From positions 17,120-81,119 of the forward strand of contig JBAZZC010000002.1 of assembly GCA_041658985.1 (NCBI GenBank): 64,000 nucleotides of DNA. Reading direction: 5' to 3'. The stretch is from Minisyncoccota bacterium. GTDB taxonomy: Bacteria > Patescibacteriota > Minisyncoccia > Phycocordibacterales > DATDWN01. Below, piece after piece: positions 5,310 to 61,121 of the stretch. A program made the translations under genes and the position numbers. Positions within the stretch are counted from its first letter, which is position 1; each line of letters starts with the position of its first letter. The notes below the pieces were generated by a model. The model ran no database searches. It was not told the origin of the DNA and saw nothing but the letters and a program-made list of their open reading frames with translations.

Positions 5310-5324
5310 AAAAAAGATAAAGAT

Positions 5325-6725: not shown

Positions 6726-6758
6726 TTATATATTGTTAATTACAAACTTTTTGCTTGA

Positions 6759-6845: not shown

Positions 6846-6869
6846 TCTACGCAGTAATTTTGTAATTGG

Positions 6870-10123: not shown

Positions 10124-10170
10124 GGTTTAGTTGAAAGTTATAAAGTTCATAAAGTTTATAAAGTAAAACA

Positions 10171-20090: not shown

Positions 20091-20173
20091 CCAGTCCTCA
20101 CCCTCTAGCTGTCAAGAGCCCTCGCTTCGCTCAGGTCTATGACAGCACCATGCTAGAGGGTTGCGGGGTCTCT
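20091..20173 (+). repeat. Conserved ~85-nt stem-loop element, copy 1: outer stem ccctctagc/gctagaggg, inner stem TGTCA/TGACA around AGAGCCCTCGCTTCGCTCAGGTCTA, then ttgcggggtctc. Preceded by a 12-bp hairpin at 20061-20090.
   Basis: Aligns along its full length with the copies at 35396 and 39691; the outer stems covary. Confidence 0.65.
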
Positions 20174-20208
20174 GAAAAAATTATGATTCAACAAGATTTA
20201 TTCTTTGT

Positions 20209-28514: not shown

Positions 28515-28535
28515 GGCACTTTGTGAACACATTTT

Positions 28536-28669
28536 ATCCGCACACTAACTTTAGTATTATCTCTCCGGTTGCTTCTATGGTTGGTTAGATAAAGTAACAG
28601 TAAAAAATAAGTGTGAATAGTAAATCTGTGTTTGACATAATGCAACGATATTAAAGTTAGTGTGCGGAT
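28536..28669 (+). repeat. Family A element A4 (variant arms ATCCGCACACTAACTTTAGTAT / ATATTAAAGTTAGTGTGCGGAT).
   Basis: Terminal inverted repeats with compensating changes on both arms relative to A2/A3. Confidence 0.65.
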
Positions 28670-28711
28670 GAATTTGCATAAACAAACTCATTTACGTTAC
28701 AATAAGGAGGA

Positions 28712-28820
28712 AATGAATCCCGTACGAAGTTTATGTATTATCGTTGTAATGGGATGAATGTTTAATTATTAACTAATTTAAGTATAAGGTGTACATAACA
28801 CATTTACTTCGTACGGGATG
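28712..28820 (+). promoter_or_regulatory. Family B leader, copy B1: AAGGAGG SD, a 14-codon uORF (MNPVRSLCIIVVMG, 28713-28757), and a long hairpin whose 3' arm (acttcgtacgggAUGa) contains the start codon of the gene at 28818.
   Basis: 14-bp perfect complementarity between uORF codons 2-6 (AAUCCCGUACGAAGU) and the region including the downstream AUG. Confidence 0.55.
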
Positions 28821-30197
28821 AAAAAAAAGATTGTTCAAGATGTTATTCCTCCTAAAAAAACTATTCGCAATGTAGAATTGTTGTATAGAGCAAAACGTTC
28901 CGAGAAAATACCCAAAGAGGTAGTAAAACAAAATATTCCAGTTATACCAGAAGTTTCCGAATCAAATTCAACATCAAACACCGAAACCTTTTCCGAAACT
29001 GAAAATTTTTCTTATAAATATGAGTACGATGAACCGGTAAGACATTCAAAAAAAATCTTGTATGTTTCTGTTGTCTTGTTTGTCCTGGCCTTATCTTTTG
29101 GTATATCAGCATTATTTAAAAGTGCAGAAATACGCATTATACCCAGGAGTGAGATTAGCTCTATAGATGAGAATTTTAAAGCCCTAAAAAATCTTTCGAC
29201 AAACGGCTTAGGTTTTCAGACCGTGACAACCACAAAAGATATTGAAAAGACAGTATCGGCAACAGACGAAGAACAAGTTGAAAAGAAGGCCATTGGCAAA
29301 ATTGTTGTTTATAATAATTATAGTGTTCAACCACAGGCACTAGTAAAGACAACAAGATTTGAAACCCCAGATGGGCTTGTCTTTCGGACAGTAGAGGACA
29401 TAACTGTCCCGGGGATACAAATCAAGAGTGATAAGGCTGTTGCTGGAAGCATAGAGGTTGGAGTAGAAGCAGATAAGCCCGGACCAAAATATAATATTGG
29501 GTTGAAAGATTTTTCTATTGCCGGTTTCAAGGGTACTCCAAAATATACAAAGATTTATGGTAGGTCAAGAACAGAAATGTCTGGCGGTTTTGTGGGAACA
29601 CAAAAGACCGTAAGTAAGGAAACTATAAATAAAATTGATGAAGAAATAAAGGAACTTCTAAAAACTTCTCTTTCAAAAGATATTATTTCGCAGATACCAG
29701 AAAATTTTGTGTTATACCAAAACAGTACTTCCTTTAAATTTGAACCAATTACTCAAATCAATGTCACCACAGAGGAGAGTGGTACTACAAACACAATAAT
29801 TTTAAAGAAAAAAGGTTCTATAAGTGCCATTATCTTTGATAAAGGTTCTCTTTCTAGGGCAATAGTTAGTAAGATTTTACCTGATGTGGCAAGTGATATA
29901 ATTAAAATAACCAATCTTGAGAGTTTAAATTTTACTTTTCAATCAGAAACTCAATTTAATCCAAATACTGATACTTTTCTTAATTTTAACCTAAAAGGAG
30001 AAGCTAATTTCCAATGGGTTTTTGACGAAAATAAACTCAAATTTGAGCTCTTAGGAATGTCAAAAAATAATGCAATAACTATAATCAGTAAATACGACAC
30101 AATAAAAGAAGCAAAAATTGAAACCCATCCTTTCTGGAATAAGACCATTCCAAAAGATTCTAATAAAGTTACACTTATAAACACTCTGGCAAAATAA
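28818..30197 (+). CDS. Hypothetical secreted/membrane-anchored protein, 459 aa.
   Basis: ORF with a TM helix near residues 80-100; no recognised motif. Confidence 0.4.
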   Translation: MKKKIVQDVIPPKKTIRNVELLYRAKRSEKIPKEVVKQNIPVIPEVSESNSTSNTETFSETENFSYKYEYDEPVRHSKKILYVSVVLFVLALSFGISALFKSAEIRIIPRSEISSIDENFKALKNLSTNGLGFQTVTTTKDIEKTVSATDEEQVEKKAIGKIVVYNNYSVQPQALVKTTRFETPDGLVFRTVEDITVPGIQIKSDKAVAGSIEVGVEADKPGPKYNIGLKDFSIAGFKGTPKYTKIYGRSRTEMSGGFVGTQKTVSKETINKIDEEIKELLKTSLSKDIISQIPENFVLYQNSTSFKFEPITQINVTTEESGTTNTIILKKKGSISAIIFDKGSLSRAIVSKILPDVASDIIKITNLESLNFTFQSETQFNPNTDTFLNFNLKGEANFQWVFDENKLKFELLGMSKNNAITIISKYDTIKEAKIETHPFWNKTIPKDSNKVTLINTLAK

Positions 30198-30758: not shown

Positions 30759-30799
30759 CGAAATAGCCAATGTTCTGCTACTATGTAGCTCGTTGATTA

Positions 30800-30937
30800 A
30801 TCCGAACACCAACTTTAGTATTGTGTCTTCCGTTGCTTCTTTTTATAAGTAATTAGCGGATTCAGTCAAGGTATAGATTTGGTTAGTAAATCTATATTTT
30901 GGACACAGTGCAACGATACTAAAGTTGGTGTTCGGAT
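30800..30937 (+). repeat. Family A element A5 (variant arms ATCCGAACACCAACTTTAGTAT / ATACTAAAGTTGGTGTTCGGAT); ends 9 nt before the infA ATG.
   Basis: Terminal inverted repeats with double compensatory changes. Confidence 0.65.
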
Positions 30938-30946
30938 AAAATTGTA

Positions 30947-31168
30947 ATGCAAGACAAAAATAAAAAAGATACTAGTACATCTGGGGTGGTTGTTGAATCC
31001 TTACCTAACGCTTTTTTTAAGGTAAGGAGGGATGATACTGGAGAAGAGTTATTGACCTATCTTTCCGGTAAAATGAGGCTTCACAGGATTAGGGTCTTGA
31101 TAGGAGACAAGGTAATAGTTGAGATAGATCCTTATGGAGGTAAGGGGAGGATAGTCAAAAGAGTTTAA
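30947..31168 (+). CDS. infA: Translation initiation factor IF-1.
   Basis: GVVVESLPNAFFKVRRDDTGEELLTYLSGKMRLHRIRVLIGDKVIVEIDPYGGKGRIVKR. Confidence 0.9.
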   Translation: MQDKNKKDTSTSGVVVESLPNAFFKVRRDDTGEELLTYLSGKMRLHRIRVLIGDKVIVEIDPYGGKGRIVKRV

Positions 31169-31171
31169 CAA

Positions 31172-31279
31172 AATGAATCCCGTACGAAGTTTATGTATAT
31201 AGTCGTAAAGGGATAGGGGTTTAATTATTAGTTAATTCAAGTATAGAGTGTAGAAACACATTTACTTCGTAACGGGATG
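31172..31279 (+). promoter_or_regulatory. Family B leader, copy B2: a 9-codon uORF (MNPVRSLCI, 31173-31202) begins 5 nt after the infA stop. The hairpin 3' arm (acttcgtaacgggAUGa) contains the rpmJ start codon.
   Basis: Same architecture and near-identical sequence to B1. Confidence 0.55.
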
Positions 31280-31393
31280 AAAGTAAAATCATCAGTAAAA
31301 AAGATTTGTTCCCAGTGTAAAGTAGTCCGCAGAAAGGGCTATGTGTATGTAATATGTAAGGCTAACGCTCGACACAAACAGCGTCAAGGATAG
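31277..31393 (+). CDS. rpmJ: Ribosomal protein L36 (not in the supplied ORF track).
   Basis: [38 protein letters not shown], 38 aa. Confidence 0.85.
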
Positions 31394-35395: not shown

Positions 35396-35476
35396 AATCC
35401 TCGGCCATGACTTGTCAAGAGCCTTCGCTTCACTCAGGTCTATGACAAGACCATGCTCATGGCCTGCGGAGTCTCC
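35396..35476 (+). repeat. Conserved ~85-nt stem-loop element, copy 2 (outer stem ggccatga/tcatggcc; inner stem CTTGTCA/TGACAAG).
   Basis: Aligns with the copies at 20091 and 39691. Confidence 0.65.
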
Positions 35477-35506
35477 CAAAAGATACGACTTCGACGAGAT
35501 TTTGTT

Positions 35507-35528
35507 TTGCTACGATATATCGTAGCAA
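35507..35528. repeat. 22-bp perfect palindrome TTGCTACGATAT|ATCGTAGCAA.
   Basis: Read directly. Confidence 0.7.
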
Positions 35529-35587
35529 ATTAAGAAGTCTGTAGTTAAGCATGTAATTACTTATATCATATGTCATAACCGATATAT

Positions 35588-35615
35588 AATTTGGTACAAT
35601 ATATTGTACCAAATT
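35588..35615. repeat. 28-bp perfect palindrome AATTTGGTACAATA|TATTGTACCAAATT; a second copy lies at 36116-36143.
   Basis: Read directly; central ATAT. Confidence 0.75.
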
Positions 35616-35642
35616 AACAATAAGGTTAAGATAATTTAGAAT

Positions 35643-35673
35643 AGGAAAACCGCCAGTCGTGCTGGGCTGGCGG
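35643..35673 (-). terminator. Minus-strand intrinsic terminator CCGCCAG-cccagcacga-CUGGCGG followed by UUUUCC, serving the small ORF 35704..35955.
   Basis: 7-bp GC stem plus a T-run on the minus strand; near-identical copy at 36172-36204. Confidence 0.6.
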
Positions 35674-35703
35674 AATTCCGCACAGCGCCACGATGGCGGT
35701 GTG

Positions 35704-35955
35704 TTACTGTTCAAAAACAATTGAACCGTTGCCCCATTCCATTCTTGACCAGCCTGCGGCCAAGTAACGAGAGGTTAGCTTACGCTCCATCTCTGCACCT
35801 GGCCTCTTACGCTGGAATGTTAGGGCGATTGTTCTGTCGTGAGCGAAATCATTTCGGGCTACCCTAAGAGCCTCGTCAATGATACGTTCCCAACCCAGCT
35901 CCTCTAAGAGTTGGCTTGGTAGAGTGGAAAATAGTCGACTTGGGCCTACTGCCAT
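35704..35955 (-). CDS. GC-rich small protein, cassette II copy 1 (83 aa; C-terminal ...YLAAGWSRMEWGNGSIVFEQ).
   Basis: SD AGGAAAGAAGGTG then ATG; about 55% GC; own terminator; paralog at 36235..36474. Confidence 0.45.
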   Translation of the reverse strand: MAVGPSRLFSTLPSQLLEELGWERIIDEALRVARNDFAHDRTIALTFQRKRPGAEMERKLTSRYLAAGWSRMEWGNGSIVFEQ

Positions 35956-36115
35956 TACACACCTTCTTTCCTCATATAAAATATCATTTTCAAATCCATT
36001 GTCAACTAATTTTGAGTATTTAAAATTTCATATTAAACCATATTTCAATCTATGTTATAGCATAGATTATACAATCTACCACATTATAAGTAGTGAATTT
36101 AATTTAGTTGGATAT

Positions 36116-36143
36116 AATTTGGTACAGTATATTGTACCAAATT
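36116..36143. repeat. Second copy of the 28-bp palindrome (AATTTGGTACAGTATATTGTACCAAATT, 1 mismatch).
   Basis: Read directly. Confidence 0.75.
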
Positions 36144-36171
36144 GAAATCATATATAAATAATTTTGGCATA

Positions 36172-36204
36172 GGAAAAACCGCCAGTCGTGCTGGGCTGGC
36201 GGAA
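36172..36204 (-). terminator. Minus-strand intrinsic terminator, duplicate of the one at 35643-35673.
   Basis: Same CCGCCAG...CUGGCGG stem plus T-run. Confidence 0.6.
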
Positions 36205-36234
36205 TTCCGCACAGCGCCACGATGGCGGTTGTTG

Positions 36235-39635: not shown

Positions 39636-39690
39636 TTTTTAAATAATAACTCCTCAAAAACACTCGGCTTCTTCCTGCGGAAGCCTCGTT

Positions 39691-39775
39691 CAGTCCTCGA
39701 CCCCTCGTTGTCAAGAGCCTTCACTTCGTTCAGGTCTATGACAACACCAAGCTCGGGGTCTGCGGATGTTTCTCG
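39691..39775 (+). repeat. Conserved ~85-nt stem-loop element, copy 3 (outer stem gacccc/ggggtc; inner stem GTTGTCA/TGACAAC).
   Basis: Aligns with the copies at 20091 and 35396. Confidence 0.65.
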
Positions 39776-39825
39776 GGGGTATTATTCTAAAAACTATTTT
39801 AGAGAGTGAGAAATGATAAATACGC

Positions 39826-39870
39826 AAAAACCCACCAACGAAAGTAGACTAGTGCGTCCGATCCCAGATG
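39826..39870 (-). terminator. Minus-strand terminator (degenerate copy of the CCCACCAAC...GUUGGUGGG UUUUUGCG hairpin).
   Basis: One of three near-identical about 45-nt sequences (39826, 40113, 40462), each after a small minus-strand ORF. Confidence 0.5.
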
Positions 39871-39877
39871 ATGGGTG

Positions 39878-40048
39878 TTACAGATGTTTCTTTTGGAAGA
39901 GTGTCCAAGCCTCAACAAACTCCTGTTCAGTCAGGTGACTGTTCACCATTCTGAAGTTCGCCTTTATGCTTCGATTGATCTCTGACCAAATAAAGCGACA
40001 GACGATGGTTACTCCCATGAAAAATAGTCCGAGCATGAACCATTCCAC
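39878..40048 (-). CDS. Small single-TM protein, about 56 aa; cassette III copy a.
   Basis: AGGAGG SD about 6 nt before a GTG start; hydrophobic N-terminus; own terminator. Confidence 0.35.
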   Translation of the reverse strand: MEWFMLGLFFMGVTIVCRFIWSEINRSIKANFRMVNSHLTEQEFVEAWTLFQKKHL

Positions 40049-40112
40049 GATATTACCTCCTCTTAGGATAATAAAATATATTGATAATATAGCCAAGTGC
40101 AATAATTAAAAA

Positions 40113-40165
40113 AACGCAAAAACCCACCAACGAAAGTGGACTAGTGCGTCCAGTGCTGGTGGGGC
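40113..40165 (-). terminator. Minus-strand intrinsic terminator CCCCACCAGC...GUUGGUGGG followed by UUUUUGCG.
   Basis: 9-bp stem (1 G:U) plus T5. Confidence 0.65.
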
Positions 40166-40169
40166 AGTT

Positions 40170-40409
40170 TCAGGACTTGGGAAGATTGCGGATGTTGCAG
40201 GTTGTATATCCCATCACAATCTCAGCCTTGTACAGGTCATCTCGCTTTTTGAGTTGCCAGATCTTTGCTCCCAAATGGATCCACCCAAGATCGAATAGAT
40301 GTTTCTCAGCGCTGACGATACTCCTGAGACGCCCGCAATCACGAAGGTGAACGAAAATGAGACCATTGTACCTGCTTACTCGAATTGTCCAAAACCAATT
40401 ATGTGGCAT
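40170..40409 (-). CDS. GC-rich small protein, 79 aa; cassette III copy b (contains the FWTIRVS motif).
   Basis: ACCAGGAGGACAGTTCC then ATG; paralog of 40517..40792. Confidence 0.45.
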   Translation of the reverse strand: MPHNWFWTIRVSRYNGLIFVHLRDCGRLRSIVSAEKHLFDLGWIHLGAKIWQLKKRDDLYKAEIVMGYTTCNIRNLPKS

Positions 40410-40461
40410 GGAACTGTCCTCCTGGTACTGATAATACATTAGAAATAATGAATGTCAATTA

Positions 40462-40510
40462 CGCAAAAACCCACCAACGAAAGTGGACATTTGCGTCCGT
40501 GTTGGTGGGG
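40462..40510 (-). terminator. Minus-strand intrinsic terminator CCCCACCAAC-loop-GUUGGUGGG followed by UUUUUGCG.
   Basis: Perfect 9-10-bp stem plus T5. Confidence 0.7.
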
Positions 40511-40516
40511 TATGAT

Positions 40517-40792
40517 TCAAGCCACTTGCTTTGGGAGTTCAGAGATGTCGAGTTGATGTCGAACCTCGATAAGGATAGCACTATACACGATGCTACCGAT
40601 TTCGAGTCGCCACGGCCTCAGGACTGGTTTATTAGTGTACACACCATCAGCTTTCTGCCAGCCGTTGGTCTTTAGAAGATTTGTGGCTGAATCAAGATGG
40701 TTTTCGTCAAACAACCCGAAATCTCCATGTCGATAACGCAGACTACCCGTTATCATCGACACACGAATTGTGTAAAACTTCGTGGCTTTCAT
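40517..40792 (-). CDS. GC-rich small protein, 91 aa; cassette III copy c (contains the FYTIRVS motif).
   Basis: GGAGG SD 7 nt before the ATG. Aligns with the 40170 paralog at F.TIRVS....G....H..D.G and a GW motif. Confidence 0.45.
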   Translation of the reverse strand: MKATKFYTIRVSMITGSLRYRHGDFGLFDENHLDSATNLLKTNGWQKADGVYTNKPVLRPWRLEIGSIVYSAILIEVRHQLDISELPKQVA

Positions 40793-41008
40793 AGAATGGC
40801 CTCCAACTGGAAATCATATCAGATAATTGTTGAATGTCAAGTATACTTATCATAAAAAAATCATATAATAAGCACTACAATAGAACTTTCAGATTTAAGC
40901 CAAGATCAAGGCGGGATGAGAAAATGTGAGGAGCCTTACTTGTCGTAAGGTGACGAGAATTTTTGAAATTCCAACGCAGATATTGGCCAAATGTGGAAGT
41001 TATAACAT

Positions 41009-42095: not shown

Positions 42096-42144
42096 GCAGA
42101 GTTTTTAATTTTCAATTTTTAAACTGGGTGTTATAATATAAGAT

Positions 42145-43245
42145 ATGAAATCAAAAATATTTTTAGTTTTCACTCTAATTTTATTTCTAGTTGTTTTTAC
42201 GACAAATCTCAACGCTTCTACCACCATTAGTACAAATATAAATACAGGAGGTTCGCTGACAGTTAGTAGCACAGGTATTTTTGCTGGGAATGTTGGTATT
42301 GGCACAACCACTCCTGCAACTTCGCTTAGTATAGTCGCTACCCCATCAACGACTAGTTATGTAGATGGTATAGCCACAACTATTTATCCTGCTAATCTTT
42401 TAAGTATTACCGATACCACTGTTTCTGCTGTAAGGAATGCCGGTAGTCTTATTGATTATATCGCCAATCCTCCATCTAATCCTGGTGCTAAAAGATATTA
42501 TGGTCAGGAAGTTACATTATCAACACCCTCAAGCAATGAACAGAGTATGACGTCAGCTTCTTTGACAGGTATCTTTTTAAATGCTTATCATCAAGGTTCT
42601 GGGAGTATATCAAACGTAACTAGTCTTAATGGAACCGCAACTGTTTCTGGAAGTGGGAATGTGGTGGCTGTAAATGGACTTTCTGGAACCGCAACTGTTT
42701 CTGGAAGTGGGAATGTGACTTCTTCTGCAAATGGTCTTACTGGAACCGTAACTTTTACTGGAAACGGTACAAAAGTAACCGCAAGAGGAGTATTTGCTAC
42801 GTTAGTTAATACTGGCTCTGGCACAATAACAAATCTTATCGGAAATGATTTAACGGTAGTTAGTACTGGAGGAACGATAACTAACCTTTATGGTTTTAGG
42901 TTTGATCCTTTATCTAGCTCCTCAGGCACAATTAATAATACTTATGGTTTTTATGTGGGTGATATAACTTCAGGCACCCAAGCTAATACCCCATATTCCT
43001 TTTACGCCTCTGACGCTGGGGCATATAATTACTTTGCCGGCAATACTGGTATCGGGACAACTACCCCACAGACTAAACTTCATGTTTCCTCTGGTGCAAG
43101 TGCCACGACCACAGTAACTGTAGGAGAACTTGGACTGACTACTAGTAAGGCATGTGTTAATATGAATAGAGACGATGGAAATCCAGCAAGTTTCTTTATA
43201 AATGCTGCTGGAACCATAGTTGTTGAACTTAATTATTGTAGATAA
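42145..43245 (+). CDS. Secreted surface protein, family member 1 (signal/anchor, GNVGIGTTTP-type repeats, variable Gly/Ser/Thr-rich core, conserved C-terminal module ending NYCR).
   Basis: N- and C-terminal regions are near-identical at DNA level to 43993..45147. Confidence 0.6.
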   Translation: MKSKIFLVFTLILFLVVFTTNLNASTTISTNINTGGSLTVSSTGIFAGNVGIGTTTPATSLSIVATPSTTSYVDGIATTIYPANLLSITDTTVSAVRNAGSLIDYIANPPSNPGAKRYYGQEVTLSTPSSNEQSMTSASLTGIFLNAYHQGSGSISNVTSLNGTATVSGSGNVVAVNGLSGTATVSGSGNVTSSANGLTGTVTFTGNGTKVTARGVFATLVNTGSGTITNLIGNDLTVVSTGGTITNLYGFRFDPLSSSSGTINNTYGFYVGDITSGTQANTPYSFYASDAGAYNYFAGNTGIGTTTPQTKLHVSSGASATTTVTVGELGLTTSKACVNMNRDDGNPASFFINAAGTIVVELNYCR

Positions 43246-43271
43246 GTATTTATTTTAATCATTATATAGAT

Positions 43272-43976
43272 ATGAATAAAAATTTTTTCTTACTTAGTGT
43301 ATCATTTCTGTTTATCACTATTTTTATTTCCACAAGTCTTTATGCTTCAACCACCATCAGTACAGATATAAATACAGATGGAAATATCAGTATCGGGACA
43401 ACTACTCCATGGGCAATGTTTAGTGTGAATCCGAACGGAATTGGTAATGGTCCAGAGTTTGCAATCGGGTCATCAAGTGCAACGCACTTGGTAGTAACTA
43501 ATTCAGGCAACGTCGGCATCGGAGTGACGAGTCCATTGTCTAAGTTAAGTGTTGGTGGAGCAGGATTAGCCGGTGCAGCTATCTATGGCGGCGGTAACAC
43601 CTACGGTGTGGATGGTGTTGGTACAGCGTATGGTGGTCTCTTTACTGGTACTGCAGGTATTGGTGTATATGGCAGTGGTACTACATATGGTGTTTATGGT
43701 AATGGTGCTGGTTCTGGTGTCGGTGGATATTTTAGCTCTTTTTCTGGCTATGCCTTAATAACAAACAGTGGCAACGTCGGAGTTGGAACAACTACCCCCC
43801 AGACTAAACTTCATGTTTCCTCTGGTGCAAGTGCCACAACTACAGTAACTGTAGGAGAACTTGGACTGACTACTAGTAAGGCATGTGTTAATATGAATGC
43901 ATCAGATGGTTCGGCCGTCAGTTTTTATTTTAATGCAGCACATGCAATGGTAATTGAGTCAAATTACTGTCGTTAA
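43272..43976 (+). CDS. Secreted surface protein, family member 2 (short; shares the signal and C-terminal module).
   Basis: C-terminal ...GNVGVGTTTPQTKLHVSSGASATTTVTVGELGLTTSKACVNMN...NYCR. Confidence 0.55.
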   Translation: MNKNFFLLSVSFLFITIFISTSLYASTTISTDINTDGNISIGTTTPWAMFSVNPNGIGNGPEFAIGSSSATHLVVTNSGNVGIGVTSPLSKLSVGGAGLAGAAIYGGGNTYGVDGVGTAYGGLFTGTAGIGVYGSGTTYGVYGNGAGSGVGGYFSSFSGYALITNSGNVGVGTTTPQTKLHVSSGASATTTVTVGELGLTTSKACVNMNASDGSAVSFYFNAAHAMVIESNYCR

Positions 43977-43992
43977 TTTTATATTAATAAAC

Positions 43993-45147
43993 ATGAATAC
44001 CAAGAGAATTTATTTTATAGTTTTAGGTGTGTTTTTGTTTGTTACTATTTTTATTTTCACAAGTCTTTATGCTTCTACCACCATTAGTACAAATATAAAT
44101 ACAGGAGGTTCGCTGACAGTTAGTAGCACAGGTATTTTTGCTGGGAATGTTGGTATTGGCACGACTACCCCTGCAACTTCACTCAGTATAGTCGCTACCC
44201 CATCAACCACTAGTTATGTAGATGGAATAGCCTCAACTTATTACCCCACAAATCTTTTAAGTATTACTGATACCGCTGTTTCTGCTGTAAATAATACTGG
44301 TATCCTTATTGACTATATAGTTAATCCTTCATCTAATCCTGGCAGTAAAACTTATAGAGGCCAGGTAATTACACTATCAACACCTTCAAGCAATGAACAG
44401 AGTGTGGCGTCTGCTTCTTTGAGAGGTATCCAATCAAATGTTAAACATCAAGGTTCTGGAAATTTATCAAGTTTAATAGGCATAACACTTAATGCAGATT
44501 TCACTGGTTCAGGCACTATTGCGAACCAATATGGTACTAGTGGAAGTATAACCGTTACTGGGAGTGGAAATGTGACAAATCTATATGGCAATGCTTTTTC
44601 AGAAACCGTTACTGGGAGTGGAAATATAAGCAATCTTAAAGGAGAATCAATCACAATAACTCATACTGGTAATGGGAATGTAACAACTCTATCAGGAACT
44701 CTTACCATAATAACTCATACTGGCTCTGGCACAATAACATCATTTGATGGAAGTAGATTAACTCTAGTTAATACTGTCGGGACAATAAACACTGCTTATG
44801 GTTTTAGATTTGAAAGTTTGACTGGTGCAGGCACAGTTGGTAACACTTATGCATTTTATGTAGGTGATATAACTGCCGGCACGCAAACCAATACCCCATA
44901 TTCCTTTTACGCCTCTGACGCTGGGGCATATAATTACTTTGCCGGCAATACTGGTATCGGGACAACTACCCCCCAGACTAAACTTCATGTTTCCTCTGGT
45001 GCAAGTGCCACAACTACAGTAACTGTAGGAGAACTTGGACTGACTACTAGTAAGGCATGTGTTAATATGAATCAAGCAGATGGCAGTGCCGGAAGTTTTT
45101 ATCTGGCAGGAGGTACTGTAAAAGTTGAAGATAATTATTGTAGATAA
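43993..45147 (+). CDS. Secreted surface protein, family member 3.
   Basis: Same termini as member 1 with a different middle segment. Confidence 0.6.
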   Translation: MNTKRIYFIVLGVFLFVTIFIFTSLYASTTISTNINTGGSLTVSSTGIFAGNVGIGTTTPATSLSIVATPSTTSYVDGIASTYYPTNLLSITDTAVSAVNNTGILIDYIVNPSSNPGSKTYRGQVITLSTPSSNEQSVASASLRGIQSNVKHQGSGNLSSLIGITLNADFTGSGTIANQYGTSGSITVTGSGNVTNLYGNAFSETVTGSGNISNLKGESITITHTGNGNVTTLSGTLTIITHTGSGTITSFDGSRLTLVNTVGTINTAYGFRFESLTGAGTVGNTYAFYVGDITAGTQTNTPYSFYASDAGAYNYFAGNTGIGTTTPQTKLHVSSGASATTTVTVGELGLTTSKACVNMNQADGSAGSFYLAGGTVKVEDNYCR

Positions 45148-45171
45148 TCGTCTTATTATTTAATCATTTAG

Positions 45172-45654
45172 ATGTCAGTAATCTTAACAAAAATTACAAG
45201 TGCACTTTCCGGTGATTTAGTCTTTCTCGTCGTTGTTTTTGCCGTCTTATTTATTTGCGCGATGTATTTTGGTAAAAATCAGATGGTTTCTATCGTTCTA
45301 TCATTCTATCCAGCAACACTTCTATACAATAGTTTCCCATTCATTAATAAATTTATTGTACTAACTGGAGAAAAGCTGGTGATTCTAAACAAAGTCGGAA
45401 TATTTCTTATTTTCTTTGTCATAGCAAACTTCGCCATAAGAAAATACATCTCTTCATATAACGAATCATCCAGTATTCTTAAAAACGGGGGATTGGCTTT
45501 TGCCGTTCTTGTTCTTCTCCTTTTATTTTCTTATAGTACTGTGAGTTTAGATATATTTCATAACTTTTCTGGCTCAATAGATGTGCTTTTTGTAAGTGCC
45601 GATAGGGTATTTTGGTGGAATCTGGCTCCTTTGGCCATTTTGATATTTATCTAA
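45172..45654 (+). CDS. Integral membrane protein, 160 aa.
   Basis: Hydropathy only. Confidence 0.4.
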   Translation: MSVILTKITSALSGDLVFLVVVFAVLFICAMYFGKNQMVSIVLSFYPATLLYNSFPFINKFIVLTGEKLVILNKVGIFLIFFVIANFAIRKYISSYNESSSILKNGGLAFAVLVLLLLFSYSTVSLDIFHNFSGSIDVLFVSADRVFWWNLAPLAILIFI

Positions 45655-45773
45655 CCCTACCATTCAAGCACGTTGATTTTTGGCAGTTTTGATGTCTACT
45701 AAAAATTAAGATTATGTGGCTTTATGGAGCCAATATTTAGGCCTTTTCATATCTCATTTTTTGTGTTATTTTG

Positions 45774-45803
45774 TTGACAGGGGGTAGGTAAGTGTGATAT
45801 ACT
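45774..45803 (+). promoter_or_regulatory. Near-consensus sigma70-type promoter: TTGACA, 18-nt spacer, TATACT.
   Basis: Read directly. About 120 nt upstream of the gene at 45927, with a small hairpin plus T-run right after the predicted TSS. Confidence 0.45.
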
Positions 45804-45926
45804 ATACATGACTCAGTAGAACTGAGTTTTTCCGTTCTAAACAGGGATGAAATGAACTAACTTCTTTCATTCCTCCAGAATTACTATTTAATTAAATAAT
45901 TTATTTTAAATTTCACAGCAGTAGGT

Positions 45927-46367
45927 TTGTTTATGGTTTTATCGTCTGTCACAGGCGTTACCAGTCCAGTTACGGTCACAGAGGCTCCAAAAGTGGAAAC
46001 TAGTGCCGTAAAGGAGATATCAAGAAAGGAAGTTGAAAACATAATGAGTACCGAACAATACATTAAACAGTATTTCTCGGATATTCCAATTATGATTCAA
46101 ATTGCCAAGTGTGAATCGAGGTTTAGACAACTCGATTCAGATGGAGATATTCATAGAGGAGTAAATAAAGCTGATGTGGGTGTAATGCAGATAAACGAGC
46201 GTTACCACCTAGACCAGTCAGTAAAGAAAGACTACAATATCTACACCATTGAGGGTAATACCGCTTATGCCCGTGACTTATATGAAAGACAGGGCACACA
46301 GCCTTGGGCGTCATCAAAGGCATGTTGGGGTAAGTATGAGAATAAGGACCTAGCAATAAACAAATAA
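45927..46367 (+). CDS. Secreted transglycosylase-like (Rpf/SLT-like lysozyme fold) protein.
   Basis: IAKCESRFRQLD...GVMQINERYH resembles the catalytic Glu region and the G.MQ motif of lytic transglycosylase-like domains. Confidence 0.4.
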   Translation: MFMVLSSVTGVTSPVTVTEAPKVETSAVKEISRKEVENIMSTEQYIKQYFSDIPIMIQIAKCESRFRQLDSDGDIHRGVNKADVGVMQINERYHLDQSVKKDYNIYTIEGNTAYARDLYERQGTQPWASSKACWGKYENKDLAINK

Positions 46368-46392
46368 TTGTAAAAACAAATTTTACACACGG

Positions 46393-46417
46393 ACCCCTGG
46401 AAACAGGGGTTTTGTGT
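46393..46417 (+). terminator. Intrinsic terminator ACCCCUG-gaaa-CAGGGGU followed by UUUGUGUUG.
   Basis: 7-bp stem plus T-run. Confidence 0.65.
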
Positions 46418-46497
46418 TGTCTAAAAATTTTTAATAGTTTTTATTTTATTGTCTATTTGTAGAGGGGAGTAGTATAAGAGCACGTCGCACAATATAT

Positions 46498-46668
46498 CTT
46501 TAGTGTGTCCTCCTTGAGGGCACACTAAAGATGAATACATTTTACAAACACGGCGCAAAGCTTGTGTCGTAAAATGTATTCTCCCCCATCTACCATTAAA
46601 AAGATTCAACCTGACGCATTATAGGAGGTCGATTCTCGCCTCTTCGGCGAGTCCGTCGTTGAGACGGA
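46498..46668. other. Cluster of four consecutive strong hairpins (10-bp, 13-bp, 5-bp, 6-bp stems) in a convergent intergenic region; candidate structured ncRNA or stacked terminators.
   Basis: CTTTAGTGTG...CACACTAAAG; GAATACATTTTAC...GTAAAATGTATTC; TCGCC-tcttc-GGCGA; TCCGTC-gttga-GACGGA. Confidence 0.3.
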
Positions 46669-46765
46669 TTTAGTATCCAAAAAAATAATTTTACTAGGGG
46701 ATTGGTTATAATCAAAAAACATCCTAAAAATAGGATAACTCCCCTACTCGCACATCATTGTCTTA

Positions 46766-46987
46766 TTAGAAGGTTGGAGCTTTATTAACTATCAAATTTC
46801 TTATTACATCATCCAGCCAATTGTAAAGAATTTTGAAAAATGTTATTGCTGGTTGAATTATTTCTTGGGCCTTAGGTGACCTTAGCCATTCCAATAGGTC
46901 AAAATGCAAAAAATATTTTAAAGCTATTACCGCAATTATTAATAAAATTATTCTTCCTATAAAACCTTTATTGTTAGTTAAATTCAT
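46766..46987 (-). CDS. Small membrane protein, 73 aa.
   Basis: Single TM helix. Confidence 0.4.
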   Translation of the reverse strand: MNLTNNKGFIGRIILLIIAVIALKYFLHFDLLEWLRSPKAQEIIQPAITFFKILYNWLDDVIRNLIVNKAPTF

Positions 46988-47004
46988 ATGGCTATATTAT
47001 AAAG

Positions 47005-48294
47005 TTATTTTGGAAAATATGCCAGAGGGTCCAAATAGGCTTTAATGTCGGCTAGGGGTATTATGGCTTGTTTGCATCCCCTACTATTTACATATTTTTC
47101 TATACGTACACCTTGGGTAGCATAAACACCTACATGTAGGTGTGGTCCTGTAGAATATCCTGTATTACCACTATATCCTATTAAATCACCAGTTTGTAAC
47201 TGTTGCCCAGTAGAGATACTAATTACAGACAGATGCCCATATACAGTAGATAATCCATTATTGTGTTTTATCATAACCCACTTACCAAAGGAATAACATC
47301 CGGAGTACAAATCTGTATTGCCGGTGCCAGCTACCACCCCATCCAAGACGTTTTTTACTCTTGTGCCGACACTAGCTCTAAAATCTATACCATTGTGTGT
47401 CCCCGATGCATATAACTTCTCTGCCCCAACTGTTTTACCGAATTTTTGTGTAATAAACACATTATCTAATGGCCAAGATAATAAACCTGTCTTAGCAACT
47501 GGATATCGCGTCTTATCAATAGCGATATTTAATTGAGATTCATATTCGTAAACCTCTTGTTCAAACTGAGCTTTTTGCTCTTCTTTTGTTTTGACTAATT
47601 GTTTAAAGGCCTCTTCTTTGTTTTTTGTCTGAACCAACAAATTTTCCTTCTCTTTTGTGGTATATATCACCGCCTGTTTTTTTCCATTCAAATCTTGTTT
47701 TAGGTTAATTAAATTATTTTTTTGTCCCTTCAGGGCTGATTGTTTTATTTCCATTTCTGCTTTTAAAACAGACAATTCCTTTGATTTATTTATTATCACA
47801 TCTTGTGTTTCTTTTATATTATCTATTTCATTCCAGATATCACCAATGTTTTTATTTGATAGAATTATTTGGACAATATTTATATCTTCCAAGATACGTG
47901 TCTCTTGTATGGCATTGATTATAGCTTCTTTGTTTACATCAATATTAGTCTTTGTCTTTTCTATCTCGTCACCCAGTTGTTCTATCGTTAAGACCGTCTT
48001 GTTTATCTTATTTTCGGTTAAGTTAATATCTGCTCCTATTTTCTTTTTGGTTAAATCTAATGTTTTTAGAGTATTTTTTAGAGTTGTAGCCTCTTTATTT
48101 GCACTATTAACCTCTTCATTGTATTGTTTTATCTCTTCTTCTAAATGTTTTATCAAAATATTACGTTCCTCAATTTTTATCAGAATATCGTCCTTATTTT
48201 CTATACTAGTTTGGGCTATCACCATAGAAAACGGACTAATACTTAAAAAAAGAGATAATAGAAAAAATAATATATAGATATTTTGTTTAAACAT
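47005..48294 (-). CDS. M23 peptidoglycan DD-metalloendopeptidase with an N-terminal coiled coil (EnvC-like).
   Basis: GTHNGIDFRA...GHLHVGVY is the M23 zinc-site pattern; long heptad-rich N-terminal region. Confidence 0.8.
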   Translation of the reverse strand: MFKQNIYILFFLLSLFLSISPFSMVIAQTSIENKDDILIKIEERNILIKHLEEEIKQYNEEVNSANKEATTLKNTLKTLDLTKKKIGADINLTENKINKTVLTIEQLGDEIEKTKTNIDVNKEAIINAIQETRILEDINIVQIILSNKNIGDIWNEIDNIKETQDVIINKSKELSVLKAEMEIKQSALKGQKNNLINLKQDLNGKKQAVIYTTKEKENLLVQTKNKEEAFKQLVKTKEEQKAQFEQEVYEYESQLNIAIDKTRYPVAKTGLLSWPLDNVFITQKFGKTVGAEKLYASGTHNGIDFRASVGTRVKNVLDGVVAGTGNTDLYSGCYSFGKWVMIKHNNGLSTVYGHLSVISISTGQQLQTGDLIGYSGNTGYSTGPHLHVGVYATQGVRIEKYVNSRGCKQAIIPLADIKAYLDPLAYFPK

Positions 48295-48307
48295 ACATTT
48301 TATTTCC

Positions 48308-49666
48308 TTAGGATAGCTTTTTTATTGCTTGATTAATTCGAGAAACTGTTTCATCTCTTCCCATTATATAAATAAGAGTAAATGGGTCTGGGCTTTTGTC
48401 TCTACCGGACATTGCTACTCGAAGTGGCCACAGGACTTCCCCACGACCATTTTGTGTGGCATAATCAAATAAGAGGTTTTTTATTTCTTCTGAACCCAAA
48501 AAAGATTCTTCTGGTGTGTTTTCCAGAACATTTAACACAAATTGTAGGTGTTTTTTGGTTTCTTCTGGTGTTTGGTTTCCTTTCCAAAACAACAAATCTT
48601 TTTCGTATTGTGGGGGACTCCAATAATAATCTAACTCCCCTCCCCTAACCATCTCGTCTATATCTCCCCATTTTGATATGTGGTCAAAAATTATTGGGCA
48701 CAATTTTTGTAGAAATTTTTCATCACCGTTGATTGAGTTATTTTTTAAACGGCTTAAAATTTCTTGGTTTCGTTCACTTTCCGGCATTAATTTCATGTGT
48801 TCTTTATTAAGCCAGTCCAACTTTTCTGGATTAAAAACCCCACCTCCTTTTTGTATCTTTGAGATATCAAATTTTTCTATGAGTTCAGACAAACTAAAAA
48901 CTTCTTGCTCTCCACCAGGATTCCAACCATTTAAGGCCATGAAATTTAGCAGGGCGTCTGGCAAATAACCGAGCCTTTTATATTCAATGGCTGGAAGAAC
49001 CGACTCATCTCGTTTAGATAGTTTGGCCCTTTCTTTGTTTAGGATAAGCGGTAGATGGGCATATATAGGTCTTGGAGCACCTATAGCCTCTTGAATCAAA
49101 ATTTGACGTGCTGTATTTGGTGTATGTTCTTGGCCTCTAATCACATGTGTTATTCCCATTTCAAAATCATCTATGACAGCTGTTAGATGGTACAAAGGTT
49201 CATTGATATCTCGAGCAATAATAAAATCTCCAAGGTCGGTTGTATCTACTGTTATATCTCCTAGAACTAAATCATTAAATGTAATTTTTTTGTTTGGATT
49301 TTTAAAACGAATAACTTCTTCTCTCTGACCCTCTTCCGTTGGTGTTTCCTTAGAGATGTAGGCAAAACCACCCTCGATCATTTTTTGTATGTATTTTTGA
49401 TGAATTTCCAACCTGTCAGATTGTCTAAAAAACAAATCATGTTTTAAGCCAAGCCATTCAAAGAGTTCAAGAAATTCATCCTCATATTCTCTTCTTGACC
49501 TTTCTTTGTCTGTGTCCTCACTTCGTAATATATAAGTTCCGTTATTTTGTCTCGCAAACAAAAAATTATATAAAGCAGAACGAATTCCACCAACATGAAA
49601 ATGGCCAGTTGGAGATGGCGCAAATCTAGTTATTACTTTATTTGTATTATTCATCATTTGTATCAC
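48308..49666 (-). CDS. gltX: Glutamyl-tRNA synthetase.
   Basis: TRFAPSPTGHFHVGGIRSALYNFLFA...KLSKR. Confidence 0.85.
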   Translation of the reverse strand: MIQMMNNTNKVITRFAPSPTGHFHVGGIRSALYNFLFARQNNGTYILRSEDTDKERSRREYEDEFLELFEWLGLKHDLFFRQSDRLEIHQKYIQKMIEGGFAYISKETPTEEGQREEVIRFKNPNKKITFNDLVLGDITVDTTDLGDFIIARDINEPLYHLTAVIDDFEMGITHVIRGQEHTPNTARQILIQEAIGAPRPIYAHLPLILNKERAKLSKRDESVLPAIEYKRLGYLPDALLNFMALNGWNPGGEQEVFSLSELIEKFDISKIQKGGGVFNPEKLDWLNKEHMKLMPESERNQEILSRLKNNSINGDEKFLQKLCPIIFDHISKWGDIDEMVRGGELDYYWSPPQYEKDLLFWKGNQTPEETKKHLQFVLNVLENTPEESFLGSEEIKNLLFDYATQNGRGEVLWPLRVAMSGRDKSPDPFTLIYIMGRDETVSRINQAIKKLS

Positions 49667-55196: not shown

Positions 55197-56309
55197 CTAT
55201 CTTACAGATTTATATCCTCCTTTCACACCGTTTGGAGAAAGAACAATTTGCCAAAGTTCTATGTCTCTAGCCCTGAAAGCTCCGGCACAAGATAATAAAT
55301 AAAATTTCCACATTTTGTAAAATCTTTCCCCATATTTTTTTGATAATTTATCCCAATGATTATTAAAATTTAAGAACCAGGCACAAAGTGTTTTATCATA
55401 GTCCGCGCCAAAATTATGCCAATCTTCTACGACAAAAACATTTTCAACGGCTCTACTTATTTCTAAAAAAGAAGGGATTTTACCATTTGGAAAAATATAT
55501 TTTTCAATCCACGGATTTACTCCAAGGGTTGTAACGTCCTTTCCAATCGTGTGTAGAAGAAATAAACCACCGTCGTTAAGACACTTTTTTGCAATATTCA
55601 TATATACTGAATAATTTTTTACACCAACGTGTTCAAACATACCAAGAGAAACTATATGGTCAAATTTTTCATTTAAATCCCGGTAATCTTGAAGGCGAAT
55701 TTCTATTGGTAAACCAACACAACTTTCTTTAACAAGTGTAAGTTGTTCTTTTGATACAGTAATACCAACAACACTTACTCTATATTTTTCTGTGGCAAAC
55801 TTCATAAAACTTCCCCAACCACAACCTATATCAAGTATTCTTTGTCCTTCATGAAGATTTAATTTTTTACAAACTAAATCTAATTTATGTTCCTGAGCCT
55901 CGTCAAGATTACTGGCGTTTTTCCAATACGCACAAGTATAAACCATGCGCTTATCCAGCATAGCTTCAAATAAATCGTTGCCCAAGTCATAATGTTTTTT
56001 CCCAACCTCAAAAGCTTTTCTGTGTGTTCCAGGGTTTGTTAATAGTGCAGTTAAATATTGCAGTATATTTGGTAAATTAAAAGAGATTTTGTTTTGTGAC
56101 TTTGCTCTGATAATTCGAGACACACATTCATCAAGTTGTTCGCAATCCCACCACCCATCCATATATGATTCACCAAGGGCCAAAGCTCCTCCAACAAGTA
56201 TCCTAGAATAAAATCTATCATCATAAACTTTTATGTCAAAAGATCTTTCGCCATTTATTTTAATATCAGCAGGTTTTAATATATTTTCTATTATTTCTTT
56301 TGAGATCAT
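55197..56309 (-). CDS. cfa: Cyclopropane-fatty-acyl-phospholipid synthase family SAM-dependent methyltransferase.
   Basis: VLDIGCGWGSFMKFATEKY...; 370 aa, CFA-synthase-like. Confidence 0.65.
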   Translation of the reverse strand: MISKEIIENILKPADIKINGERSFDIKVYDDRFYSRILVGGALALGESYMDGWWDCEQLDECVSRIIRAKSQNKISFNLPNILQYLTALLTNPGTHRKAFEVGKKHYDLGNDLFEAMLDKRMVYTCAYWKNASNLDEAQEHKLDLVCKKLNLHEGQRILDIGCGWGSFMKFATEKYRVSVVGITVSKEQLTLVKESCVGLPIEIRLQDYRDLNEKFDHIVSLGMFEHVGVKNYSVYMNIAKKCLNDGGLFLLHTIGKDVTTLGVNPWIEKYIFPNGKIPSFLEISRAVENVFVVEDWHNFGADYDKTLCAWFLNFNNHWDKLSKKYGERFYKMWKFYLLSCAGAFRARDIELWQIVLSPNGVKGGYKSVR

Positions 56310-60134: not shown

Positions 60135-61121
60135 TTATCTGCAAGTATTGCTCTCCACAACCATCGTTGTTCCTACAAAATAAAATGAAATATCTGTTCC
60201 GACAGTGTTTTTTGTGTTGAAACATGCGTAGCTTGTTGCTGAACCTAATTCCCCGACGTTTATTGTAGTTGTGGCACTTGCACCAGAAGTTACGTGAAGT
60301 TTACTTTGTGGGGTTGTGGTGCCAATACCGACGTTGCCACCGTCAAGGATACTAAAAATTGTTGAACCATTATCCTGTGCTAAAAAAATTGGTGAGGTCT
60401 GAGAACCGTTATTGGCAATTAATGCTGCGGAAGTAAATGTCGGGGTGGTGTTTTGCAAGCCAAAATATCCGCCAACTTGGATTGGAGATGTAACGGCGGT
60501 ATTAAGAGCAACCCCCATCACAGCAACATTTGTGGCAGAGTCTTTGGCTACTATAGACTTACTACCCACCCCTATATTTAAAATACCACCGACGGCTTCT
60601 GTAAATACTCCCAAATTAAGACCCGTCCCAGTTCCTACGGCTGCACTATAAAGTCCCAGATTACCAAAAGGAGTACCAGTAGATACACTAATGCGTAAAT
60701 TGTTAGTAGTATTACTTACACTGTTTAAGCTTACAGTTCCTATTGTGTTACTTGAAGTAACAGAAGCTGCATTGATGCTTGTATAAAGTCCCCATTGGCC
60801 ACTTGTAGCAGAAGTATTGGGAGTTATGTTAAATCTAACAGCAGAAGTATTAGTTGTCTGGGTGGGAAAAGTTCCAGTAACATTCAGCCAATTCTCAGTT
60901 CCGTCTGTAGCAAGAGAACCGCCAGTAAGTAAAAGTTGATTACCGTCACCTTGAATTTCCAATTTTGCCCCAGGCGTTGCTGTCCCGATACCGACATTAC
61001 CATCCGTTATTATATTTGTACTGATAGTGGTAGAAGCGTAAAGACTTGTTGAAACAAAAATAATTACAGATAAAAACAACGAATAAAACAAAGTTTTATT
61101 GTTACTAAGGTTTGTAATCAT
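60135..61121 (-). CDS. Secreted surface protein, family member 4 (minus strand).
   Basis: STSLYASTTISTNI..., GNVGIGTTTPQSKLHVTSGASATTTINVGELG...CR, same family as 42145-45147. Confidence 0.55.
   Translation of the reverse strand: MITNLSNNKTLFYSLFLSVIIFVSTSLYASTTISTNIITDGNVGIGTATPGAKLEIQGDGNQLLLTGGSLATDGTENWLNVTGTFPTQTTNTSAVRFNITPNTSATSGQWGLYTSINAASVTSSNTIGTVSLNSVSNTTNNLRISVSTGTPFGNLGLYSAAVGTGTGLNLGVFTEAVGGILNIGVGSKSIVAKDSATNVAVMGVALNTAVTSPIQVGGYFGLQNTTPTFTSAALIANNGSQTSPIFLAQDNGSTIFSILDGGNVGIGTTTPQSKLHVTSGASATTTINVGELGSATSYACFNTKNTVGTDISFYFVGTTMVVESNTCR

Follow-up and report, generated by a model that had tools for sequence, protein, structure and literature searches.

A family of predicted secreted, tail-fibre-like proteins with conserved ends and exchangeable cores in Paceibacterota

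Four related genes lie in a 64-kb stretch of DNA (the window) from a 'Candidatus Paceibacterota bacterium' metagenome-assembled genome (MAG), that of an ultrasmall, groundwater-type bacterium, three of them in tandem on the forward strand (m1, m2 and m3) and the fourth, a dispersed paralogue, on the reverse strand (m4). We consider it probable, if well short of certain, that they belong to a Paceibacterota-wide family of secreted, modular proteins resembling phage tail fibres and the MAT fibres of Bdellovibrio bacteriovorus, in which the conserved ends of the proteins, here called handles, are both functional modules and substrates for recombination. An earlier sequence-only reading of this DNA had described a four-member family; all four open reading frames (ORFs) are present as it placed them, with near-identical DNA confined to the tandem trio and m4 related to the others at the level of the family only. 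No further copies or fragments were found when the 64-kb window was searched by tblastn with the conserved modules. The four genes, the products of which are identical to public protein calls on a contig of 235,949 bp, are as follows.

42145–43245, forward strand: m1, 366 amino acids (public protein P0002, locus tag WCW47_00490), with the parts in the order signal peptide, N-terminal handle (N-handle), capping motif, N-proximal core, six 18-residue repeats, capping motif and C-terminal domain (CTD)
43272–43976, forward strand: m2, 234 amino acids (P0008, WCW47_00485), with a Gly-rich core of the GxGVYG type, three capping motifs, and the N-handle and CTD as in m1 and m3
43993–45147, forward strand: m3, 384 amino acids counted from the ATG, with the start as in the public call (P0001, WCW47_00480)
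60135–61121, reverse strand: m4, 328 amino acids, the dispersed paralogue (P0048, WCW47_00400)

Each protein begins with a hydrophobic helix that is followed by Ala and then Ser or Ala, in keeping with the earlier description of the proteins as secreted. A Sec signal peptide is predicted in all four, with a positively charged n-region and a hydrophobic stretch of about 18 residues ending in LNA↓S or LYA↓S, and AlphaFold2 (AF2) places a helix at residues 3–26. Besides the signal helix, the well-predicted parts of the AF2 models are the β-strand repeats, which form long β-hairpins in the repeat core, and the last ~35 residues. m3 is a paralogue of m1 (68–70% amino acid identity) and has seven of the 18-residue repeats where m1 has six. 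None of the four proteins has a significant family in Pfam or NCBIfam, and the PHROGs gave weak tail-fibre matches only, through the capping motif. Among 120 homologues of m3, 36 start with a signal peptide whose cleavage site is followed by A-[AS]-T-T-I-S-T-N-I, the N-handle, and 69 end in the module G-N-V-G-I-G-T-T-T-P-x-x-K-L-H-V-S-S-G-A-S-A-T-T-T-V...C...C-[RKQ], in which the capping motif runs into a two-cysteine CTD. The C-terminal modules of the four proteins are encoded at these positions.

43039–43242, forward strand: m1 C-terminal module, capping motif and two-Cys CTD, with the end ...NYCR
43770–43973, forward strand: m2 C-terminal module
44944–45144, forward strand: m3 C-terminal module, with an AF2 predicted local distance difference test score (pLDDT) of 83–93 over the last ~35 residues
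60138–60339, reverse strand: m4 C-terminal module, the 3' homology arm at that locus, with 86% nucleotide and ~90% amino acid identity to P0013, the positional orthologue of m4 in a relative

A hidden Markov model built from the CTD alone, with the capping motif removed, matches 112 of 370 collected proteins, in 109 of which the match ends no more than three residues from the C-terminus; of the 150 giant motif-repeat fibres that were also tried it matches none. The CTD, of about 50 residues, is a distinct domain that is found essentially only at the C-terminus and has no Pfam or NCBIfam model. It is 60–90% conserved across genomes in which the remaining protein cannot be aligned. A word-indexed search with the motif-less CTD returned eight short fragments only and is uninformative. 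A protein with a 72%-identical C-terminal module is also encoded on L002 (CAZWKA010000001.1, 213,888 bp), a contig labelled 'uncultured Gammaproteobacteria bacterium'; either this is a mislabelled or misbinned MAG or the CTD is present outside Patescibacteria, the label being unconfirmed.

The sequence-only reading had seen in the recurring motif IGTTTP..KLHV a feature of tail-fibre or adhesin-like proteins, and this is borne out. Searched against the PDB, a profile of the C-terminal module matches crystal structures of MAT proteins (8ond, which is Bd2133, with an E value of 1e-6, and also 8ojn and 8ol4) through its first ~20–30 residues, and the motif is the published capping-loop consensus. 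That consensus, V-G-G/N-π-x-x-P-x-x-x-L, was defined for intertwined trimeric β-helix fibres and S74 proteins (Caulton et al, 2024, PMC10769870), and GNVGIGTTTPxxKLHV agrees both with it and with published instances of the motif such as NVGIGATAPTAKLE. A phmmer search of m3 against the PDB sequences returned nothing. Two copies of the motif are present in each of m1, m3 and m4 and three in m2. It is also very widespread: a library search with the C-terminal profile found the motif in 80,137 cluster representatives, a figure that, since the search was swamped by the generic motif, gauges the spread of the motif and not the size of the CTD family. The best matches in the library are proteins of 2,000–7,900 amino acids with 20–69 copies of the motif, some of them ending in Peptidase_S74. 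Scanning genome contigs with the generic motif gave matches in the candidate phyla radiation (CPR), DPANN archaea, Bacteroidota, Bdellovibrio and others, a taxonomic spread that again applies to the motif and not to the CTD.

The cores are related to tail fibres as well. Residues 38–333 of m3 align with residues 176–440 of P0022, annotated as a 'tail fiber domain-containing protein', with 36% identity and an E value of 7e-34. The Peptidase_S74 domain of P0022 lies at residues 475–534, just after the stretch aligned to m3; because the alignment stops where S74 begins, the CTD occupies the position of S74 in that relative. None of the four proteins matches PF13884 (Peptidase_S74) at E ≤ 1, while the related proteins P0022 and P0256 do. 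At least 15 proteins that lack both the CTD and the N-handle contain modules with 33–64% identity to the m4 core. By these similarities the cores come from a general pool of MAT/S74-type fibre modules. The core of m1 and m3 is homologous to the shaft of an S74-terminated protein; in contrast to the S74 proteins, that is phage tail fibres and tailspikes and bacterial tail-fibre proteins, the present proteins have no S74 domain, end in a CTD of ~50 residues with a cysteine pair and no similarity to S74, and are chromosomal, with Sec signal peptides. With the MAT superfamily of B. bacteriovorus (PMC10769870) they share a secreted, multi-copy and mosaic character, the capping-loop motif, found here by profile match, and the conservation of one part of the protein with diversification of another. 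B. bacteriovorus lives by contact with other cells, as the present organism presumably does. MATs are, however, ~600–1,900 amino acids long, compared with 234–384 here, and their N-terminal element is a β-rich domain of ~130 residues, whereas the conserved handle of the present proteins covers ~13–50 residues (A-S/A-TTISTNI...GNVGIGTTTP), a size that argues against equivalence to the MAT N-terminal domain.

Comparison with relatives gives a view of how the cores change. P0013, the positional orthologue, was found in three assemblies independent of one another, L054 (GCA_964621565.1), L055 (an ENA groundwater metagenome) and L056 (JGI), in the gene order aspartyl-tRNA synthetase, the 328-residue protein, a 91-residue protein, a 390-residue protein, ScpA, ScpB, Peptidase_S11, a methyltransferase, AsnB and MraY. 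The flanking proteins are nearly identical to those of L054 (aspartyl-tRNA synthetase 99%, the 91-residue protein 97.8% and the 390-residue protein 99.2%). At the DNA level, positions 1–779 of L054 match window positions 61788–61010 with 94.5% identity, a block of 779 nt that reaches nucleotide 112 of m4; similarity then disappears over the core and returns, at 86%, exactly at the GNVGIGTTTP motif. The two parts of the gene on either side of the first switch are these.

61010–61121, reverse strand: m4 signal peptide and N-handle, the 5' homology arm, within the 94.5% block shared with L054
60340–61009, reverse strand: m4 core cassette (residues 38–260), 670 nt with no detectable nucleotide similarity to the L054 counterpart

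The m4 and P0013 proteins have 80% identity in the signal peptide and ~90% in the CTD, while the cores are 13–30% identical and unalignable. The m4 locus is a clean replacement of the core between two conserved handles. The array differs between relatives too. On the JGI contig L057 (1.6 kb), dnaJ, the 3' end of which has 89.8% nucleotide identity, is followed after 39 nt by the gene for a 160-residue membrane protein (83%), so that the three-gene array is absent there. As a separate observation, the syntenic block shared with L054 has a second strongly divergent or replaced gene, a CMAS/S-adenosylmethionine-methyltransferase-like gene at 55197–56309 on the reverse strand, the product of which is 54% identical to its positional orthologue in L054, compared with 89–99% for its neighbours.

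Within the tandem trio, m1 and m3 do have the near-identical 5' and 3' stretches that had been reported for them, as blocks of 163 and 183 nt and not of 230 and 260 nt. These are not the true termini of the genes but internal blocks, since the signal-peptide codons and the last 26 codons have diverged. The shared blocks, and the repeat that lies between them in m1, are as follows.

42214–42376, forward strand: m1 5' shared block, corresponding to m3 44071–44233; 95.1% identity over 163 nt with a perfect run of 92 nt, encoding ASTTISTNINTGGSLTVSSTGIFAGNVGIGTTTPATSLSIVATPSTTSYVDGIA (ASTTISTN...DGIA)
42625–42763, forward strand: 54-nt (18-residue) tandem repeat in the m1 core, 2.5 copies and 83% matching according to Tandem Repeats Finder
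42985–43167, forward strand: m1 3' shared block, corresponding to m3 44890–45072; 98.4% identity over 183 nt (NTPYSFYASD...CVNMN)
43788–43898, forward strand: m2 tract, 111 nt exactly identical to m3 44962–45072
44890–45072, forward strand: m3 3' shared block, the partner of the m1 and m2 tracts

Both m1 blocks are putative gene-conversion tracts, the 3' block running from the last part of the core through the capping motif into the CTD, of which it takes in the first ~40 residues. Outside them the identity of m1 and m3 falls to 58% in the signal-peptide codons (42145–42213, nucleotides 1–69 of m1), 80% in the N-proximal core (42377–42614), 55% with 60 gap columns in the core of 18-residue repeats (42615–42984) and 65% in the final 78 nt (43168–43245), in agreement with the earlier remark that the cores of these two members differ. 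Most of the difference in length between m1 and m3 is due to one 18-residue (54-nt) repeat more or less, which appears as a 54-nt gap in the alignment. The tandem unit takes in the intergenic spacer, with 78.5% identity between 43054–43377 and 43785–44104. m4 is 79–85% identical to m1, m2 and m3 over just 66–98 nt, and was correctly described as a diverged member on the opposite strand. m2, on the other hand, is not the short version that it had been taken for: it is no truncated m1 or m3, its core is of a different, GxGVYG type, it carries a third capping motif, and its N-proximal module has relatives of its own in other genomes.

The conservation of the ends is largely a property of the family at the protein level, common to more than 100 proteins of other genomes, and the conserved ends are therefore not by themselves evidence of conversion. 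Silent sites are more telling. In 20-codon windows the proportion of synonymous sites that differ between m1 and m3 (pS) is 0 over m1 residues 31–50 and 0–0.12 over residues 282–341, against 0.2–0.68 elsewhere and 0.4–0.68 in the windows adjoining the m1 3' block. Silent differences were also permuted among codons for identical amino acids, with the longest run without a difference as the statistic. All three tandem pairs have identity in excess of chance by this test, with longest runs of 37 codons for m2–m3 (P < 1e-4), 19 codons for m1–m2 (P = 0.0013) and 30 codons for m1–m3 (P = 0.027); among the m4 pairs no run exceeds chance. Conversion was most recent in the 111-nt tract shared by m2 and m3. 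In their last ~27 residues the three CTDs differ in subtype, each subtype being found in another genome as well: that of m3, ...QADGSAGSFYLAGG..., in P0003, that of m1, ...R-DG--ASFFINAAGT..., in P0009 and that of m2, ...ASDGSA-SFY-NAAH..., in P0050. The ~40 residues before these do not differ among the three, and this mixture of subtypes behind an identical stretch is the pattern left by partial homogenisation through conversion. Of the gene conversion or cassette shuffling proposed from the sequence alone, conversion is thereby placed in the trio, on the silent sites, and cassette exchange at the m4 locus of a relative, with m4 taking no part in the conversion of the trio. The ratio of nonsynonymous to synonymous differences in the cores, at roughly 0.4/0.6, is high without reaching 1 and the repeats align poorly, and positive selection is not claimed.

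The mechanism that we envisage starts from a protein composed of a Sec signal peptide, an N-handle that would form the mature N-terminus, an interchangeable core between capping motifs, and a lineage-specific two-Cys CTD, which holds the position of the S74 chaperone or the adhesive tip in related fibres. The proteins would form trimeric fibres on the cell surface, with the handles serving in folding, capping and/or retention in the envelope and the variable cores binding external ligands such as the surfaces of host cells or particles. In the DNA the conserved handles act as homology arms for ordinary homologous recombination, which is enough without any dedicated diversification enzyme. Short conversion tracts of ~90–180 nt keep the DNA that encodes the handles alike in the three tandem genes, and the exchange of a whole core at the m4 locus, the gain or loss of the array and the change in the number of 18-residue repeats are further footprints, the outcome of which would be a changing repertoire of binding cores. 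The swapping of cores probably lets the cell vary its surface, and the surface variation in an episymbiont that the sequence-only reading suggested would be in line with this. Conserved flanks that serve as recombination substrates, variable segments that are exchanged between them and conversion tracts of ~100–200 nt recall Neisseria pilE/pilS and the mosaicism of phage tail fibres. In contrast to such systems, all copies here are complete and apparently expressed genes, and tblastn of the window found no store of silent cassettes that lack a promoter; the exchange is seen between lineages, on an evolutionary timescale, and not as high-frequency switching.

A number of points weigh against this reading. 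Surface display, trimerisation and the binding of ligands by the cores are predictions from homology. The AF2 monomers are of mediocre confidence (mean pLDDT 68.7 and 64.5), and fold searches with these models gave nothing significant. In MATs the C-terminal tip, be it S74 or an adhesive fold, is the variable part, whereas here the two-Cys C-terminus is the most conserved part and the middle varies, so that the analogy of a conserved base and a variable tip is not directly transferable. The permutation P value for m1 and m3 is only 0.027, the one case of a relative that lacks the array comes from a single 1.6-kb contig, and both variation within the population and the correctness of the assembly are argued indirectly only. 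Finally, the CTD is also carried by P0003, a GDSL esterase, and by P0075, an LVIVD β-propeller, and its presence on such non-fibre cargo fits a role in sorting or anchoring better than one as a fibre tip.

It is possible, though we think it unlikely, that the N-handle and the CTD are chiefly a Paceibacteria-specific system for sorting or envelope anchoring, that the genes here are simply some of its cargo, with cores that would not have to be adhesins, and that the likeness to fibres is incidental and due to a common linker motif. Small, conserved, β-rich end domains on otherwise unrelated secreted cargo, enzymes included, are known from the CTD of the type IX secretion system (T9SS) of Bacteroidota and, in monoderms, from S-layer homology (SLH) and cell-wall-binding modules. 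The esterase and propeller fusions would be such cargo, and the position of the CTD at the extreme C-terminus, its final Cys followed by a basic or polar residue and its conservation where the rest of the protein is unalignable all suit this account, as does a fibre gene with the CTD that lies near an endolysin gene on a phage contig (L058), an arrangement that would be sensible if the CTD binds the Paceibacterial envelope. Several features do not suit it. No known sorting domain (T9SS CTD, PEP-CTERM, LPXTG and others) is matched at E ≤ 1 in Pfam or NCBIfam, the C-terminus ...NYCR has no hydrophobic tail, and the CTD has no transmembrane or lipid-anchor feature; in contrast to known sorting domains the CTD is fused to the fibre capping motif, with which it always begins; the cores of m1, m3 and m4 share homology with modules of tail fibres; and no candidate machinery has been identified beside the genes. 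An anchoring role is compatible with the fibre-family explanation and does not exclude it. The two might even be combined, in that the N-handle and two-Cys CTD could together be an undescribed Paceibacteria/CPR module for the presentation of varied cargo at the envelope, the CTD having been captured by a CPR phage as the distal end of a fibre that binds the same envelope ligand, and the handles doubling as recombination arms by which adhesin cores are swapped without dedicated machinery; this we put forward tentatively, as an idea with the odds against it.

An explanation by purifying selection alone, acting on the modules after an old tandem duplication with neither conversion nor exchange of cassettes, is improbable. 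It would account for the strong conservation of the modules in more than 100 proteins of other genomes and for the lack of excess silent identity in the m4 pairs. It sits badly with the fall in synonymous divergence to 0–0.12 inside the blocks only, with the exact runs of 92 and 111 nt and with permutation P values from 0.027 to below 1e-4. Three same-strand paralogues on the CPR contig L052, which are under the same protein constraint and serve as a control, have just 70–77% nucleotide identity in the CTD and no such tracts. Equally hard to reconcile with it is the m4 locus, where the match to L054 stands at 94.5%, similarity then abruptly vanishes and 86% identity follows, and taken together the silent-site and synteny data stand strongly against selection alone.

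It is very unlikely that these genes were left behind by a prophage, as part of a tail-fibre module, instead of encoding surface proteins of the cell. The weak PHROG tail-fibre matches and the IMG/VR contig with a fibre gene ending in the same CTD could be read in this way, but the CTD has no match in 50,697 GenBank phage records, all four proteins have predicted signal peptides, many members of the family are chromosomal, and the neighbours of the family loci in the window are housekeeping genes (grpE-dnaK-dnaJ, murG, ftsW, mraY, tRNA synthetases and scpAB), with no phage genes among them. A prophage origin was rejected on this gene context. Within the interval 3922–8400 the IMG/VR contig itself (L058, UViG_3300033121_000329), a predicted phage contig, encodes a tail-fibre-like protein of 743 residues with several capping motifs, an oddly signal-peptide-like N-terminus and a two-Cys CTD that is 72% identical; small holin-like ORFs and an endolysin gene (phrog_435, E 1e-17) lie downstream of it.

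Programmed variation, by a diversity-generating retroelement (DGR), a site-specific recombinase or an invertase acting on the family, is more doubtful still. DGRs are common in CPR, and one lies 4–5 kb from the paralogue array on L052. The sequence-only reading had suggested searching for a reverse transcriptase as the driver of diversification; the precomputed Pfam annotation that covers the window holds no RVT gene, there is no repeat of the template/variable (TR/VR) kind in the window, and the mismatches between m1 and m3 have no adenine bias (63 A, 57 C, 50 G and 67 T). The DGR hypothesis was rejected on the lack of such a repeat and of adenine-biased mismatches. The DGR on L052 (GCA_040384025.1, JAWVHG010005465.1; 8394–10926) is bona fide, on the same contig as the three family paralogues, and it served as a positive control: positions 8973–9088, the 3' end of a 236-residue gene, are 82% identical to 9419–9534, with 20 of the 21 mismatches at template adenines. 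Further along are an RVT_1 gene (9925–10926) and a Transposase_mut gene. Its target, the 236-residue protein, is unrelated to the CTD family.

The other driver that had been suggested, a recombinase, does exist in the window in the form of one large serine recombinase gene (<1–1473), but it is located 40 kb from the array beside a gene for tRNA-Ala, as is typical of an integrase, and there are no inverted repeats flanking the array, a finding on which an invertible promoter or inverted-repeat switch was also rejected. The recombinase has 520 amino acids and the domains Resolvase, Recombinase and Zn_ribbon_recom; its gene, which begins 87 nt ahead of the window, overlaps that for tRNA-Ala(TGC) (1411–1484, reverse strand) and abuts a GIY-YIG gene (1470–1718, reverse strand), and this may be the edge of an integrated element. 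Within 1–1718 one base differs between the window and an ENA contig.

It is most unlikely that the tandem array or its shared blocks are an artefact of metagenome assembly (collapse, expansion or a strain chimera), even though the Logan unitig assembly lacks the three full genes and breaks at the repeat edge, since the longest exact repeats (111, 92 and 83 nt) are shorter than the 141-mer inferred from the contig name k141_, all three array genes keep intact reading frames around long unique cores, the contig of 235,949 bp is continuous through the array, and L050, a Logan unitig obtained from another run, matches window positions 45043–49318 with 100% identity and starts at 45043, where the shared block has its distal edge and where a true repeat would be expected to break a unitig. 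L050 and L046, a Logan unitig from a different run, both end in the glutamyl-tRNA synthetase gene with a 30-nt overlap (49289–49318), which points to branching between strains or to a repeat there.

The capping motif, the fibre superfamily and gene conversion among paralogous surface-protein genes are already known. New are the occurrence of such proteins in Paceibacterota, outside the taxa surveyed for MATs, a survey that lists no CPR member (PMC10769870), the two-Cys CTD and N-handle, for which Pfam and NCBIfam hold no model, and the inverted logic by which the ends are conserved and the middle is exchangeable. Cultivated Patescibacteria/CPR live attached to other microbes and, in the accounts drawn on here, the way in which they recognise and hold their hosts is little understood beyond type IV pili. 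The present Paceibacterium has a small repertoire of predicted secreted proteins built from the module pool that also supplies phage tail fibres and the prey-recognition fibres of Bdellovibrio, with direct comparative evidence that variable cores have been exchanged between conserved handles at a fixed chromosomal locus. The proteins are concrete candidates for host-contact or envelope proteins in CPR, and the CTD could serve to inventory surface proteins across Paceibacteria genomes. Should their function not be adhesion, they would still be a clean case, of moderate interest, of concerted evolution and cassette replacement in a streamlined genome.

The array of m1, m2 and m3 lies directly 3' of grpE-dnaK-dnaJ, with gaps of 16–26 nt between its genes, and m4 is flanked by the aspartyl-tRNA synthetase gene and scpA. 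A further feature lies just upstream of the array.

42109–42137, forward strand: promoter-like site TTTTCA-17-TGnTATAAT, TG-extended and 8 nt ahead of the m1 start, identified as a consensus match only

A similar promoter-like element is present upstream of the gene for the 160-residue protein in the array-less L057. The array is also right beside a change in the organisation of the window: between 44000 and 47000 the cumulative GC skew has its maximum, at ~46.5 kb, and gene orientation changes from the forward strand, up to 46.4 kb, to the reverse strand, from 47.0 kb, which is the pattern expected at a replication terminus.

The interval between dnaK and dnaJ (39650–40900, 1.4 kb) has no publicly annotated gene and a higher local GC content (0.42). 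It contains three small ORFs in tandem on the reverse strand (39878–40102, 40170–40439 and 40517–40792), the latter two with a common motif (WTIRVSRYNG and YTIRVSMITG, respectively), and a repeat of ~50 nt that occurs three times (39812–39859, 40104–40151 and 40451–40499). Elsewhere in the window there are dispersed families of intergenic repeats, 60–180 nt long and 72–89% identical, which are not tRNAs and have no match in Rfam at gathering thresholds; they are located at 4733–5335, 20092–20199, 28533–28823, 30796–31282, 35412–35705, 36112–36233 and 39691–39766.

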